Under the pieces are notes generated by a model. That model was not told where the DNA came from. It ran no database searches and was given only the letters and a program-made list of their open reading frames with translations. The position numbers and the translations under genes are program-made. Of a stretch of DNA of 64,000 nt, positions 10,041-30,203 are shown one piece after another. How positions within the stretch are numbered: the stretch's first letter is position 1; each line of letters starts with the position of its first letter. The DNA comes from Escherichia coli O157:H7 (GTDB lineage: Bacteria > Pseudomonadota > Gammaproteobacteria > Enterobacterales > Enterobacteriaceae), in the NCBI RefSeq assembly GCF_013167455.1, contig NZ_CP038328.1. One strand, given 5' to 3'.

Positions 10041-10116
<76 letters not shown>

Positions 10117-10169
10117 GTTTAAAAGACATCGGCGTCAGCGGATGTCTGGCTGAAAGGCCTGAAGAATTT

Positions 10170-10243
10170 GGCGCGTTAACAAAGCGGTTATGTAGCGGAT
10201 TGCAAATCCGTCTAGTCCGGTTCGACTCCGGAACGCGCCTCCA
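10170..10243 (+). tRNA. cysT: tRNA-Cys (anticodon GCA)
   Basis: 74 nt ggcgcgttaacaaagcggttatgtagcggattGCAaatccg...ggttcgactccggaacgcgcctcca. Confidence 0.95.
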
Positions 10244-10255
10244 CTTTCTTCCCGA

Positions 10256-10342
10256 GCCCGGATGGTGGAATCGGTAGACACAAGGGATTTAAAATCCCTC
10301 GGCGTTCGCGCTGTGCGGGTTCAAGTCCCGCTCCGGGTACCA
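10256..10342 (+). tRNA. leuZ: tRNA-Leu (anticodon TAA), intact copy; prophage integration target
   Basis: 87 nt gcccggatggtggaatcggtagacacaagggattTAAaatccc...ggttcaagtcccgctccgggtacca, with long variable arm. Confidence 0.95.
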
Positions 10343-12400: not shown

Positions 12401-13291
12401 TCAGGCTGCCAGATCATCGTTTCCGATGGAAGCATAATAAGCTTTTTCTGCTTCTGCCGGAGGAGTATGGCCCAGCCTTCCCAGCAATCGTCGATTGTTA
12501 TACCAGTCCACCCACGTTAGTGTGGCCAGTTCCACTTCTGCACGGTTTTTCCAGCTCTTACGGTGTATTACCTCCGCTTTGTAAAGACCATTGATGCTCT
12601 CAGCCATCGCGTTGTCATACGAGTCGCCTGTACTCCCTGTTGATGCCAGTAATCCGGCTTCTTTTAGTCGCTCCGTATAGGCCAGTGACACATACTGAGA
12701 GCCTTTATCGCTGTGATGGATGGTGCCAGACGGACGACGGGCCCACAACGCCTGCTCCAGCGCATCCAGCACGAATGTCGTTTCCATAGACGATGAGACC
12801 CGCCACCCCACGATGTATCCGGCAAACACATCAATGATAAACGCCACATAGACGAAGCCCTGCCATGTGCTGACGTAAGTAAAATCAGCCACCCACAGCT
12901 GGTCAGGTCGTTCTGCCACGAACTGACGGTTTACGCGGTCGCCTGCGGCAACGGCTTTCCGGCTGATGGTCGTACGGACCTTTTTACCCCGGAGAACACC
13001 GGCAAGTCCCATAACCGCCATGAGACGTGCCACTGTACATCTGGCCACCCTGATTCCTTCCCGTAACAACTGACGCCAGACTTTACGCACACCGTACACC
13101 TGATGATTTTCATCGTATACGCGCTGTATCTCTCTCTTCAGCCAGTCGTCGTGCTGCGCACGGGCACTGCGTTTATCCGGATGATGTCGCTGTTGCTGAC
13201 AATGGTAATACGTTGACGGGGCAATATGCAGTTCGCTGCATACCGGTCCGACCCCGTACTGCTCACGCAGCTTATCCAGCAGTGGCATCAT
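12401..13291 (-). CDS. IS3-family transposase OrfB (DDE integrase domain)
   Basis: 296 aa, [16 protein letters not shown]...; rve-type catalytic domain recognised. Confidence 0.85.
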
Positions 13292-13614
13292 TTTTTCCAG
13301 AGGCGGTCGAACTCCGCCTTCGCAAAATAAGCGGAAGCCTGGCGAAGGATATCGTTACTGCGGCGCAGTTCACGATTTTCACGTTCCAGCTCTTTCAGAC
13401 GCTGACGTTCAGCGCTGGTGAGCCCACCATCACCGCCCCCGGTATCCCGCTCATGCTGGCGAACCCAGACACGCAGAGTCTCCGGCGTACAGCCAATCTT
13501 TGGGGCAATGGAACAAATTGCCGCCCACTGTGAGTCATATTCATCCTGACTTTCCAGAACCATACGAATCGCCCGCTGACGGACTTCGGGGGAAAAACGA
13601 GTATTTTTAGTCAT
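13288..13614 (-). CDS. IS3-family transposase OrfA (HTH / leucine zipper)
   Basis: 108 aa, [22 protein letters not shown]...; overlaps orfB as expected for a -1 frameshift fusion. Confidence 0.85.
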
Positions 13615-19513: not shown

Positions 19514-19930
19514 TTATTGTGGGGCGACTGGCCACTCAACATCCGCTGCTACTGTTGTATCAACACGATTCAACAATACCCGATATGTCTTCCATGCAGC
19601 CAGTAACGATGCCTCTTCCTCCGTCGCAATATCCAAATCTACGGCATCCTGAAGTGGCGCAATATGCTCACTGGCTACCTGCATCAGGCTGTTTTTTGTT
19701 TCTTCTGCCTCCCGTACCCGAAACAGTTTTTCTGCTTCTGCATCTTTCGCCCAGGATGTGCCGTTCCACTTCTGACACTCTCCATCCGGCGACAACCAGG
19801 TAACATTTTCCGGTAACGGACCGAGTTCAGAAATAAATAACGCGTCGCCGGAAGCCACGTCATAAACCGTTTTACCCCGATGATCTTCAACGAGATGCCA
19901 CGATGCCTCATTACTGTTGAAAACAGCCAC
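19514..19930 (-). CDS. tail fibre assembly protein (Tfa family), 5'-truncated; the reading frame continues upstream to 20046 without a start
   Basis: C-terminal Tfa region recognised; the upstream frame 19931-20046 translates [38 protein letters not shown] and runs into IS629 copy 2. Confidence 0.75.
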
Positions 19931-20046: not shown

Positions 20047-21104
20047 TGAACCGCCCCGGGAATCCTGGAGACTAAACTCCCTGAGAAAGAGGTAAACAGG
20101 ATGACTAAAAATACACGTTTTTCCCCCGAGGTCCGTCAACGGGCAGTCCGTATGGTTCTGGAAAGTCAGGGCGAATATGACTCACAATGGGCGGCAATTT
20201 GTTCCATTGCCCCAAAGATTGGCTGTACACCAGAGACTCTGCGTGTGTGGGTTCGTCAGCATGAGCGGGATACCGGGGGCGGTGATGGTGGACTCACCAC
20301 CGCTGAACGTCAGCGTCTGAAAGAGCTGGAACGTGAAAATCGTGAACTGCGCCGCAGTAACGATATCCTTCGCCAGGCTTCCGCTTATTTTGCGAAGGCG
20401 GAGTTCGACCGCCTCTGGAAAAAATAATGCCGCTGCTGGATAAGCTGCGTGAGCAGTACGGGGTCGGACCGGTATGCAGTGAACTGCATATTGCCCCGTC
20501 AACGGATTACCACTGTCAGCAACAGCGACATCATCCGGATAAACGCAGTGCCCGTGCGCAGCGCGATGACTGGCTGAAGAGAGAGATACAGCGCGTATAC
20601 GATGAAAATCATCAGGTGTACGGTGTGCGTAAAGTCTGGCGCCAGTTGTTACGCGAAGGTATCAGGGTGGCCAGATGTACAGTGGCGCGCCTCATGGCGG
20701 TTATGGGACTTGCCGGTGTTCTCCGGGGTAAAAAGGTCCGTACTACCGTCAGCCGGAAAGCCGTTTCCGCAGGCGACCGCGTAAACCGTCAGTTCGTGGC
20801 AGAACGTCCTGACCAGCTGTGGGTGGCTGATTTTACTTACGTCAGCACATGGCAGGGCTTCGTCTATGTGGCGTTCATCATTGATGTGTTTTCCGGATGT
20901 ATCGTGGGGTGGCGAGTCTCATCGTCTATGGAAACGACATTCGTGCTGGATGCACTGGAGCAGGCGTTGTGGGCCCGTCGGCCGTCCGGCACAGTCCATC
21001 ACAGTGATAAAGGTTCTCAGTATGTATCACTGGCCTATACGGAGCGACTAAAAGAAGCAAAACTGCTGGCATCAACAGGGAGTACAGGTGACTCGTATGA
21101 CAAT
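20047..21104 (+). mobile_element. IS3-family IS629-like element, copy 2, 3'-truncated (~1058 of ~1310 bp), inverted relative to copy 1
   Basis: Left IR TGAACCGCCCCGGGAATCCTGGAG at 20047; similarity to copy 1 stops after ...gactcgtatgacaa (~21104). Confidence 0.85.
20101..20427 (+). CDS. IS3-family transposase OrfA
   Basis: 108 aa, nearly identical to copy 1 OrfA (a few substitutions). Confidence 0.85.
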
Positions 21105-25757: not shown

Positions 25758-25988
25758 TTAATGGAGTTTGTTTTGCTGCTGGATGAGCTGTTGAAACTCG
25801 TGCAGATCATCCGCCAGATAGCTGAAAACAGAGGCGGAATAAATGTTTGATAGTGCGTGGCTGCGCTCATGCAGCATATTGATGTGCATGATTTGCGCGA
25901 CGCGTGATGCGCGGGAAAGTCTGCGGTTGATTTCAGTCTGGATGTGACGACGCTCCGCGATAGCGCGGTGCTGTTTGCGGTCTGCCAT
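25758..25988 (-). CDS. hypothetical prophage early protein
   Basis: 76-aa ORF in the early operon. Confidence 0.4.
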   Translation of the reverse strand: MADRKQHRAIAERRHIQTEINRRLSRASRVAQIMHINMLHERSHALSNIYSASVFSYLADDLHEFQQLIQQQNKLH

Positions 25989-26310
25989 GGTGTGGCCTCT
26001 TTGCTCGGTGATAGAAATAACTCACCATCCAGAGTTGAGAATCTCGGGGTGGCGAGACGTACAGGGTTCTCAACACCGGAGAGCAAAGAATCCGGCCCGA
26101 CCGAAGTCGGCCCCGTACGCCCCGCCATAATTCTGACGCGAAAAAGACGTGGCAATACAGTACGCACAAAAAAACCGCTAGCGCGGTTATGCGCTTTGCT
26201 CTGTATCGGGTTGAGAATCCCGGCACCCGTTTTATGAGGTGCAGCGGAAATGTAACCTGACCGATTGCGGCATGGCAAGCGGTTTTTTTGTGTGTGCATG
26301 TTCTGGTTTC

Positions 26311-28308: not shown

Positions 28309-28609
28309 CCGTGCGAAGTGCTTCGTATAATGTGAAATCCTGCCCGAAGTGATTGTCGCCGCAGTTCAATGCAAAAATGCGGTTCCCGGTAAACGGATTG
28401 CGTGGGCATTTGTGGACCACGATTCCAGCTTTCTCAATCAGCCAGGCATGTTCGCCGATTTGTTTTACAGCGTGGCCATCCGGTGTTGCATGCGTCTCGT
28501 TCAGGTTATAGCGACTGTTACTACGTGATGCACTGGTAGCGACGTGGTGTACATGGCGTTCTACGCCATTACGAAATTTGGAGTATGGATTATTAGCGTT
28601 TTTTTTCAT
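28259..28609 (-). CDS. hypothetical prophage early protein
   Basis: 116-aa ORF. Confidence 0.45.
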   Translation of the reverse strand: MKKNANNPYSKFRNGVERHVHHVATSASRSNSRYNLNETHATPDGHAVKQIGEHAWLIEKAGIVVHKCPRNPFTGNRIFALNCGDNHFGQDFTLYEALRTVDRLLRGQSFIKQADL

Positions 28610-28630
28610 GATGGTGCTCTGTTCATTGTT

Positions 28631-28834
28631 TTAGCTGTTAGCCAAAGCGTCTTTTAACATCGCCACAAGGTTTACTTCAGGCTTTTCCATTTTGGCGCGT
28701 TTGGGGCGGATAATAATTCGACCGTCAGCCAACATCTTTTTGCATGTATTAAGAGGGATACCTGTTATCTCTGCATATTTCTGCAGGGATACATAGGGGG
28801 CATTCACATTGATATTGATGGTTATACCTGACAT
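28631..28834 (-). CDS. Cox-like small DNA-binding regulator / excisionase-type protein
   Basis: 67 aa; YAEITGIPLNTCKKMLADGRIII resembles the P2 Cox HTH region; position divergent from the repressor. Confidence 0.55.
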   Translation of the reverse strand: MSGITININVNAPYVSLQKYAEITGIPLNTCKKMLADGRIIIRPKRAKMEKPEVNLVAMLKDALANS

Positions 28835-28850
28835 CCCACTAGCCTCCTGA

Positions 28851-29057
28851 TCAGGAAGATTTGTTTTGTTCTTTCTGGGTTAGCTCTAGGCCGCGAAGGG
28901 AGATCATGCGCGCCATGTTAGAGGATGAGCGTTGTTCTTTAGCTGCCATTTCATCAATGACGGCTCGCTCCTCGAGGGACAGCCGAAGTGCCAGTCTTGG
29001 ACCTGTGGCGGTGTTACGCGGAATGCGTGATCTGGTATCGTGAAGAACTTGTTTCAT
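28851..29057 (-). CDS. ribbon-helix-helix (Arc/CopG-like) small regulator, first gene of the leftward early operon
   Basis: 68 aa; LSLEERAVIDEMAAKEQRSSSNMARMI is RHH-like; divergent from the repressor gene. Confidence 0.5.
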   Translation of the reverse strand: MKQVLHDTRSRIPRNTATGPRLALRLSLEERAVIDEMAAKEQRSSSNMARMISLRGLELTQKEQNKSS

Positions 29058-29132
29058 AGTGGTATATTGTGATCATCTAATAGCTCGTGAAATCATTTTG
29101 GTATCAAAAAAGATACCTGTCAAGGTTTTTGT
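29058..29132. promoter_or_regulatory. immunity-switch intergenic region with operator-like palindrome GGTATCaaaaaaGATACC (29100-29117)
   Basis: Perfect 6-bp inverted repeat with 6-bp spacer between the divergent repressor and early operon; a GGTAT half-site recurs at ~29060. Confidence 0.5.
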
Positions 29133-29537
29133 ATGAAAAATGATATTGGTCGGCGGTTGCGTGAGGAAAGGGAAAGATTGGGACTTAGTCAAGTTGCCAT
29201 GAGCGACATTGGTGGAGTCAAAAAGCTAACTCAGCTTAGATATGAGAAAGGAGATAGCTTTCCTGATGCTGCGTATTTGGCAGCGCTGTCTCGTTTTGGC
29301 CTTGATGTTCAGTATGTTGTGTTGGGAATTCACTCACCTGAAACTTATAACGATGATGAGCAGGAATTGATTACTCGCTTTCGAGCAGCTTCGTTAGATG
29401 TGAAAAACGCGGTGATTGGGGCTTTAAAAGGTGCGATCAGTGAAAAGGAAACTCAGCCATCAGGACGTGAGTTAAATATTTCTGGTGGTAATAACCGTAT
29501 CGCTGGTCGTGACTATAACGAAACTAAGGGTAGGTGA
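29133..29537 (+). CDS. prophage repressor, HTH XRE family (C/CI-like)
   Basis: 134 aa; N-terminal HTH (LREERERLGLSQVAMSDIGGVKKLTQLRYEKG); divergent from the Cox-like gene; upstream of int. Confidence 0.75.
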   Translation: MKNDIGRRLREERERLGLSQVAMSDIGGVKKLTQLRYEKGDSFPDAAYLAALSRFGLDVQYVVLGIHSPETYNDDEQELITRFRAASLDVKNAVIGALKGAISEKETQPSGRELNISGGNNRIAGRDYNETKGR

Positions 29538-29552
29538 TAGTAGGGAGGTGAC

Positions 29553-30203
29553 ATGGCCGTCAACTCAAACGGTTCAAACAATCGCGTTGCTGGGCGTGAT
29601 TTTCACGAAAAGAATATTCAGATAGAGCGATATGATGGTTCTCATACCGTCAATATCGCAATCCCTTCGAATAATGATGATGACGATCGCCCTTTGCTTA
29701 AGGCTCAGCGTAAGGAGCTAAATAGCTTGGTTGCTGCTATTGCAGAAGCTAGCAATACTGAAGCGTTTATTATTTGGCAAAAAGTACATGCGGAGATTGG
29801 TGTAGCTGGTATTGATGATATGACAGTAAATCAATATAAAACAGCGGAGAGTTTTCTGCATGCAATGCTTGAGCGATGTAAAGATCATGATGCCTGTAAG
29901 GCTCTTGTAAGTTTATTACTACGTAACAGTGAAGACTGTGGACTTCGACAAAAACTTCTGCGGTATTGCCATATCAATTTCGGTACAGGACGTTTAAACG
30001 ATCTTACTCGTTCTCAGTTACAGTCTGCATTGTCGTGGTTAGAGCAACAATCGGCATCAAGCCACATAGAGAGTTCGACCTTACCAGAAGTCCGACTTCG
30101 TGCTTCAGAATTAATCCGACTTTATCCAAAAGAAATAATATTCTTTATCTGCGTAGGGGTTTTGGTAGGCGGTGTCATTTCTAGGGCGTTTTTTAATTTG
30201 TAA
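29553..30203 (+). CDS. hypothetical tail-anchored membrane protein (cargo between repressor and integrase)
   Basis: 216 aa; one C-terminal TM helix (IIFFICVGVLVGGVISRAFF); N-terminus shares the motif NNR[IV]AGRD[YF][NH]E with the repressor C-terminus; AT-rich. Confidence 0.55.
   Translation: MAVNSNGSNNRVAGRDFHEKNIQIERYDGSHTVNIAIPSNNDDDDRPLLKAQRKELNSLVAAIAEASNTEAFIIWQKVHAEIGVAGIDDMTVNQYKTAESFLHAMLERCKDHDACKALVSLLLRNSEDCGLRQKLLRYCHINFGTGRLNDLTRSQLQSALSWLEQQSASSHIESSTLPEVRLRASELIRLYPKEIIFFICVGVLVGGVISRAFFNL

Follow-up and report, generated by a model that had tools for sequence, protein, structure and literature searches.

This report concerns a 75-bp gap between two divergent genes in a prophage of Escherichia coli O157:H7 and, within it, an 18-bp palindrome (O1) that is very probably the operator of the prophage repressor. 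We analysed a stretch of 64,000 nucleotides (the window), in which the gap occupies positions 29058-29132 and makes up the whole interval between a 68-residue open reading frame on the minus strand (ATG at 29057) and a 134-residue open reading frame on the plus strand (ATG at 29133). The minus-strand frame encodes an Arc-like protein of the ribbon-helix-helix (RHH) type and is followed on the same strand by a gene for a Cox-like protein and then by the remaining early genes. The plus-strand frame encodes a helix-turn-helix (HTH) protein of the XRE type, with the genes of the repressor-side operon beyond it (Table 1).

O157:H7 chromosomes of E. coli match the 2-kb region around this switch at 100% identity, and of 5426 complete E. 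coli genomes 524 contain it. Its identity to Escherichia phage 520873 (Peduoviridae, Xuanwuvirus) is 97.9%. Because of these matches, and because of the positions of the tRNA-Gly/Cys/Leu genes (10041-10342) and of yecA (31944), we identify the element in the window as Sp13, the P2-like prophage of O157 Sakai, in the genus Xuanwuvirus. Prophages of the Sp13/CP-933T type occur in ~10% of complete E. coli genomes and in nearly every sampled O157:H7 strain. Sp13 is defective in morphogenesis, yet it is induced by mitomycin C; its early region is transcriptionally silent and mitomycin C-inducible, the 134-residue protein, which lacks a peptidase motif, is regarded as the repressor, and the mechanism of SOS induction is unexplained (Asadulghani et al., PMC2669165).

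A palindrome in the early promoter follows the repressor recognition helix

An earlier sequence-only reading of this DNA had described a perfect inverted repeat in the 75-bp interval and proposed it as the probable repressor operator. The repeat is confirmed from the sequence: O1, GGTATCAAAAAAGATACC (= GGTATCaaaaaaGATACC), consists of GGTATC, six A residues and GATACC, its GGTAT(C) half-sites lie 12 bp apart from centre to centre with the A6 core between them, and it is the sole perfect copy in 64 kb, where 0.06 copies with at most one mismatch are expected. A consensus promoter scan of 28600-29600 returned one promoter only, the leftward early promoter Pe (10/12), with a predicted transcription start near 29088, and O1 occupies the whole of its 17-nt spacer.

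To compare this arrangement across relatives, we drew on IMG/VR for sequences related to the HTH or the RHH protein and read the DNA upstream of each HTH gene, using 26 representative loci (L numbers below) for tests between classes and 46 close relatives for the conservation of O1. In classes with a non-symmetric core, O1 was set by hand from its GTCAA anchor, as a simple full-length palindrome scorer mislocated it. A leftward, sigma-70-like promoter matching at ≥9/12, with its spacer filled by a class-specific palindrome of 16-20 bp, is found in 25 of the 26 representatives, the family pattern being TTGAC[A/T], a spacer of 17-18 nt and cAnaAT, and an equivalent palindrome stands in the place of O1 in ~14 heterologous classes. 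Among the 46 close relatives O1 is perfect in 44; one carries a single change in one arm and another (L044) is rearranged through the site.

The O1 of L023 reads GGTATCAAAAAAGATATC, with a C-to-T change in one arm; it is the lone close relative of this kind and a candidate operator-down (vir-like) or decaying allele. In L044 (= L207), ~60 nt upstream of the HTH gene, two HTH repressor genes are found in tandem: an L077-like gene ending ...GKGHRIAGRDYNETKG is fused directly to the right half of O1 (cgAAAGATACCTGTCAAGG), and a window-type repressor gene comes next. The junction of this recombination lies within the operator, leaving the L044 copy with neither Pe nor the early operon on that side.

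Natural exchanges between loci indicate which protein the palindrome belongs to. L075/L076 and L077 have an RHH protein 90-93% identical to that of the window and a Cox-like protein that is identical or nearly so, with an HTH protein only 41-45% identical, and their palindromes are TAGGGAACAAAACTTCCTA and GAGATCAATAGATCTC, respectively, at the same position and abutting GTCAA. The converse is seen in L053-L066, which have an HTH protein 53-63% identical to that of the window with an unchanged recognition helix, VKKLTQL; here the divergent gene encodes a Ner-like HTH protein and is followed by Mu-type genes, there is no RHH gene, and the palindrome is retained (GGTATAAATATTTATACC or GGTATAAAAATTTATACC). 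Moreover, L190, L196, L197 and L201 share nearly one RHH protein and carry four unrelated palindromes, and L077 and L197 share one palindrome and have different RHH types.

The half-sites instead covary with the recognition helix. VKKLTQL pairs with GGTAT(A/C), (V/I)RKQ(A/T)QL mostly with GGTAC (the exception being L177, in which the left arm is still GGTAT) and AFR(A/T)YCD with ATTTGCA..TGCAAAT; such helix/palindrome pairings are found in ~14 classes. Across the 26 representatives, half-site distance correlated with recognition-helix distance (Mantel r=0.60, p=0.0002) and showed no such correlation with the C-terminal helices (r=-0.01) or the tail (r=-0.07) of the same protein, and the association is therefore not simply that of a whole gene with shared ancestry. 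These comparisons support that the palindrome follows the HTH recognition helix, and neither the Cox-like nor the RHH protein nor the repressor's C-terminal part. Together with the position in the Pe spacer, the swaps and the covariation argue for the operator function that the sequence-only reading had proposed.

The 134-residue protein matches phrog_8 in the PHROG database (E=2.6e-14), and an AlphaFold2 model built on a 26-sequence alignment (mean predicted local distance difference test score, pLDDT, 80.7) contains an HTH domain at residues 2-64, with helices at 2-15, 20-27, 31-39, 46-53 and 59-64 and pLDDT >90, followed by two helices (74-105) and a disordered tail. In a Foldseek search the N-terminal domain matched the DNA-binding domain of P22 c2 with a root-mean-square deviation (rmsd) of 1.6 Å over 63 aligned columns, and further matches were C.BclI, HipB, 434 repressor/Cro and P2 C; a sequence search of the protein against the PDB gave no match. 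P22 c2 and 434 bind palindromes of 14-18 bp with AT-rich centres that are not contacted, the operators of P22 c2 being 18 bp long, and the 18-bp O1 with its A6 core fits this form.

A probable second operator, a candidate facing promoter and the proposed switch

Comparison between classes also points to a site that the sequence-only reading had missed. O2 overlaps the repressor start codon upstream of the Pe -35, ~three helical turns from O1. When each locus was scanned downstream of O1, the best match to its own operator lay 30-34 bp away, over the HTH start codon, in 21 of 26 loci, and the O2 of the window scored 14 against its own O1, with a cross-class maximum of 12. With one representative for each of 16 classes and 20,000 permuted pairings, the summed self score was 193 as compared with 151.7 +/- 6.4 for the permutations, the highest of which reached 184 (p<5e-5). 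Within the GGTAT class, codon 4 varies between GAT, AAT and TAT with ..ATAT.. constant, suggesting a constraint at the level of DNA. Based on these comparisons, we take O2 to be a true second site, and a second dimer bound there would contribute to cooperative binding, to negative autoregulation or to both.

Other candidate sites were tried and rejected. GGTATC at 29034-29039, inside the RHH gene, is not kept in L043/L045, which have a repressor 93-94% identical to that of the window. Near-matches to GGTAT-N8-ATACC are more frequent than expected (7 found, 0.72 expected); the two in the Cox-like gene (28745-28762 and 28811-28828), considered as distal operators, are identical in the heteroimmune L075 and not kept in the homoimmune L043/L045. 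No family-wide, class-specific distal operator was found within 900 bp of the switch.

At the other end of the interval lies a conserved box, located 38-40 nt to the left of O1 in all 18 RHH-type representatives whatever the class of their repressor, and absent from the Ner-type loci. The sequence-only reading had described a half-site related to the palindrome near 29060. That sequence, GGTATA at 29061-29066, falls inside the box, and we do not accept it as a half-site of the repressor: heteroimmune loci conserve it, and in 7 of the 46 homoimmune close relatives the box reads TGATATATT (GATATA), losing GGTAT and keeping TGnTATATT. Across classes, the box varies at base four of the hexamer (TAT[A/G/C]TT). 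Because TGATATATT spares TGnTATATT and the box is independent of repressor class, TGgTATATT (29060-29068) is likely the extended -10 element of a promoter facing Pe, which we call Pc and which is likely the repressor promoter, with a start that would lie near 29075. This assignment was made by eye and from conservation; the consensus scan of 28600-29600 found no plus-strand -35/-10 promoter for the repressor gene and could not have detected Pc, because extended -10 elements were outside its test. The placement of Pc agrees with L075, where palindrome and HTH start codon adjoin and the mRNA must therefore begin inside the operator or upstream of it.

The opposite strand of this end of the interval forms the leader of the RHH gene (29058-29088, minus strand). 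No Shine-Dalgarno sequence can be recognised before the start codon of this gene (…CACAAUAUACCACU-AUG), and the leader is CA/AU-rich and better conserved across RHH types than the adjoining coding sequence. Translation of the RHH gene may be independent of a Shine-Dalgarno sequence, or the conservation may come from the overlapping Pc or from a protein-binding box.

The sequence elements, their fixed register, their conservation and their covariation with the HTH domain are observations, and the following scheme would connect them. A dimer of the 134-residue protein would bind both half-sites of O1 and, because O1 takes up the whole spacer between -35 and -10, would exclude RNA polymerase from Pe. 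With Pe shut, the early operon would be silent, including the RHH and Cox-like genes and downstream genes such as the epsilon-like gene and the replication genes. A second dimer, binding cooperatively to the weaker O2, would strengthen repression, limit repressor synthesis or both. Pc would read through both operators into the repressor gene and, because the two promoters face each other with starts only ~13 bp apart, would compete with Pe as in P2 and 186. In lytic growth, the RHH or the Cox-like protein would shut Pc.

Table 1 Features of the Sp13 switch region and related elements in the window
Feature	Position	Strand	Basis
O1, perfect 18-bp palindrome GGTATCAAAAAAGATACC (= GGTATCaaaaaaGATACC), putative repressor-dimer site	29100-29117	.	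Sequence, comparative register, covariation
O2, degenerate putative second operator TTGTATGAAAAATGATATTG	29129-29148	.	14/20 identical to O1 20-mer; 30 bp from O1
Pe -35, TTGACA, abuts O1	29123-29118	-	Promoter scan, 10/12 match; TTGAC[A/T] abuts palindrome in nearly all classes
Pe -10, CAAAAT, 17-nt spacer	29100-29095	-	Promoter scan and comparison
Conserved box TGGTATATTGTGATC (= TGnTAnnTTGTGATC), candidate Pc	29060-29074	+	In 18/18 RHH-type representatives
134-residue XRE-type HTH repressor	29133-29537	+	Profile searches, AlphaFold2 model, alignment
68-residue Arc-like (RHH-type) protein, early operon gene 1	28851-29057	-	phrog_3431 ('Arc-like repressor') E=4e-27
67-residue Cox-like excisionase/repressor, early operon gene 2	28631-28834	-	phrog_575 E=1.2e-27; kept in all RHH-type loci
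216-residue membrane-anchored protein, repressor-side operon	29553-30203	+	
DUF2511 protein, repressor-side operon	30233-30580	+	
P2-type integrase, repressor-side operon	30586-31587	+	38% identity to P2 Int
C4 antisense RNA	26045-26132	-	Rfam
isrK Hfq-binding RNA	26168-26242	-	Rfam
76-residue 'derepression protein', P4 epsilon-like	25758-25988	-	Pfam PF25738

We estimate the probability that O1 is the primary operator of the Sp13 lysogeny-maintenance repressor, acting on Pe together with O2 and a facing Pc, at roughly 0.85. Several points weigh against this interpretation. When the interval is shuffled, 20.5% of the shuffles contain a perfect 6+6 inverted repeat with a spacer of 0-10 nt, as do 17.3% of all 75-nt stretches of the window; a single palindrome in 75 nt is thus not significant by itself, and the case therefore rests on the comparative data. 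The Pe -10, CAAAAT, is a weak match to the consensus. The O2 of the window is a weak match (14/20), and 5 of 16 classes have none. Pc is placed by conservation, and its box could instead, or in addition, be a target of the RHH or the Cox-like protein. The match of the repressor to Pfam HTH_31 (E=4.5e-5, 24.1 bits) lies below the 27-bit gathering cut-off, and our literature search found no published operator or binding study for the repressors of Sp13, Xuanwuvirus, P88 or the BcepMu/B3 type.

The alternative that survives best, although improbable, is that the palindrome acts mainly in the repressor mRNA, as a hairpin of the 5' leader that affects stability, translation or attenuation, protein binding being secondary or absent. 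The palindrome would be transcribed if Pc starts near 29075, the minimum-free-energy fold contains a GGUAUC/GAUACC stem, and both arms change together between classes. However, the folding energy is ordinary (z=-1.1; 28 of 200 shuffles fold as well), and the arms correlate with the recognition helix of a protein, which a hairpin does not require. Moreover, O2 keeps the half-site identity without good self-complementarity, and the fixed register with a -35 and -10 on the opposite strand is a constraint on DNA.

It is very unlikely that the Arc-like RHH protein instead binds the palindrome to regulate its own synthesis. Its gene comes first in the operon that Pe drives, the half-sites are partly symmetric internally (G.TA.C), and a position in the promoter spacer recalls the Arc operator in the P22 Pant promoter (immI), which is likewise a palindrome between -35 and -10 with an Arc-like gene adjoining. 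Nevertheless, the site in the window follows the HTH protein: the palindrome is replaced when the HTH protein changes and the RHH protein stays 90-93% identical, one RHH type occurs with four palindromes and two RHH types with one, and Mu-like loci without an RHH gene still carry the palindrome. We give equally little credit to the idea that the site is bound not by the HTH repressor but by a host factor (IHF, Fis) or the Cox-like protein, an idea that could appeal to the Cox or Apl sites in the switch regions of P2 and 186 and to the bending of DNA by an A6 tract. The sites of Cox and Apl, however, take the form of direct repeats rather than palindromes. The window and L075 have identical copies of the Cox-like protein, which is strongly conserved in general, yet their palindromes differ, and host factors do not require class-specific sequences. 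Least credible is a functionless chance palindrome in AT-rich intergenic DNA, for although comparable repeats are present in 17-20% of 75-nt stretches, this one is perfect in 44/46 close relatives, keeps its register to the -35 in 25/26 representatives and ~14 classes, and covaries with the recognition helix.

The RHH gene, the repressor tail and a possible RNA layer

The 68-residue protein belongs to a conserved family with a beta-strand/helix/helix sequence pattern. Its AlphaFold2 monomer model consists of an extended segment and two helices, for which Foldseek returned no match, and a profile search of the PDB gave only a weak match (E=0.15) to a DUF1778 protein, which we take to be an antitoxin of the RHH type. 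In the RefSeq/PGAP annotation of O157:H7 PA20 the gene is omitted, and a plus-strand 'hypothetical protein' of 45 residues, WP_001673482.1, is called at 28906-29043. The record of phage 520873 and PHROG 3431 both back the minus-strand Arc-like gene. Because the minus-strand frame is conserved as protein in 18 diverged loci, the 45-residue call is probably wrong.

No S24 peptidase domain was matched in the repressor by Pfam, and induction by self-cleavage is therefore impossible; nor was a LexA box that could account for SOS induction found close to the switch or to the epsilon-like gene, such matches being as numerous as chance predicts. The protein ends ...NNRIAGRDYNETKGR, with RIAGRDYNETKGR as its tail. 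This tail, SGxGNR(I/V)AGRDYNE(T/N)K, is nearly invariant among heteroimmune repressors with HTH domains only 31-65% identical (29476-29537; alignment A2), and an anti-repressor, a protease or some partner protein may use it as a handle. The motif recurs, as GSNNRVAGRDFHEKN, at the N-terminus of the 216-residue protein (29553-29610), which carries a membrane helix at its C-terminus. The pairing of a repressor with a membrane protein in the window matches that of BcepMu gp17-gp18, and gp18 has GSVAGRD at the matching place (25% identity over 102 residues, E=7e-6). L080 encodes a fusion of the HTH protein with a domain that resembles the central part of the 216-residue protein.

Within the early operon, Rfam detects two RNAs directly upstream of the gene for the 76-residue derepression protein: a C4 antisense RNA, at 78.5 bits, and the Hfq-binding RNA isrK, at 63 bits. 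This layout resembles the cI-RNA/epsilon arrangement of P4 immunity, and the C4/isrK/epsilon-like set could form a second, RNA-based layer of immunity, perhaps relevant to the inducibility by mitomycin. Elsewhere in the prophage, two ALIL pseudoknots, which we take to be frameshift elements of the IS3 family, and one IS009 RNA match lie at 13217-13333 (minus strand), 19551-19749 (minus strand) and 20382-20498 (plus strand); they fit the disruption of the Sp13 morphogenetic region by insertion sequences reported in the literature.

Relation to known switches and implications

As judged from the model of its N-terminal domain, the repressor shares the five-helix HTH fold of P22 c2 and 434, and the window resembles these systems further in an 18-bp palindromic operator with an AT-rich centre, in more than one operator copy and in a specificity that tracks the recognition helix. 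It differs in having two operators 30 bp apart that flank the -35 instead of three adjacent sites, in the location of the operator in the promoter spacer, and in a C-terminal part composed of two helices and the RIAGRDYNE tail. In contrast to repressors of the lambda CI/LexA type, it has no S24 peptidase domain.

The layout as a whole resembles that of P2. As in P2, there is a P2-type integrase, the repressor gene is on the integrase side and a Cox-like gene is in the early operon; the repressor P2 C also lacks a peptidase domain. In the annotated P2 switch, the Pe -35 is at the start codon of C, O1 lies in the Pe spacer and Pc is next to cox, and with the candidate Pc the topology of the window would be the same. 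P2 C (99 residues) is 33% identical to the window repressor over 46 N-terminal residues only (pairwise E=8e-5), and its structure (2xcj; rmsd 2.2 Å over 71 aligned columns) fits no better than those of other XRE proteins. The operators of P2 C are 8-bp direct repeats flanking the Pe -10 (PMC2995052), whereas those in the window are inverted repeats, O1 in the spacer and O2 upstream of the -35. Unlike in P2, an RHH gene precedes the Cox-like gene, which encodes a protein without detectable similarity to P2 Cox. The switch of phage 186, also of the P2 family, has face-to-face (convergent) promoters and inverted-repeat operators over the lytic promoter, as proposed for the window; however, no alignment of the HTH domain to 186 CI was found, the window repressor is much smaller, no establishment gene of the CII type was seen, and the switch has no class-specific distal sites within 900 bp that would correspond to the FL and FR sites of 186.

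By descent, the window repressor groups with HTH proteins of Mu-like phages. The gp17 of Burkholderia phage BcepMu, annotated as 'cro/cI repressor', is a true homologue (46% identity, alignment A2; tblastn matches), and the HTH regulators of the Mu-like phages B3, KS10 and Ps59 are homologous to the window repressor as well. In BcepMu, TGGTATGCGTTTGATTACC abuts TGTCAA ~25 nt before the start codon in a layout like that of the window, and a membrane protein with the VAGRD motif follows. BcepMu-type loci differ from the window in that the divergent gene is Ner-like instead of RHH plus Cox-like and that the backbone is transposable instead of P2-like. A review of the regulatory regions of P2-like phages recognises two groups only, the P2-C type and the 186-CI type (PMC3448106). 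From sequence comparison, the window repressor appears to be neither; it reads as one half of a P22 c2/434-style pair placed in a P2-style face-to-face switch, and as BcepMu gp17-like by descent.

A bolder proposal, to which we assign low odds, is that the palindrome is one of at least 14 specificity variants of a portable immunity cassette (HTH domain, O2, Pe -35 and O1) that recombines without restriction between P2-like phages, with RHH and Cox early genes, and Mu-like phages, with a Ner early gene. The cassette would constitute a third, previously undescribed type of P2-family switch, the tail being a shared point at which derepression could act, through the epsilon-like protein for instance. 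If this were true, an epsilon-like protein acting on the tail would explain how mitomycin C induces Sp13 although the repressor has no peptidase domain.

The conventional repressor-operator pair favoured here changes no concepts, and it concerns a repressor family that is apparently without experimental study. For Sp13/CP-933T-type prophages it gives a testable map of the immunity switch. The ~14 natural pairs of helix and half-site amount to a specificity table for XRE-type repressors, which could serve the design of orthogonal synthetic repressors or the prediction of superinfection immunity groups, and the invariant tail points to a possible target of anti-repressors.

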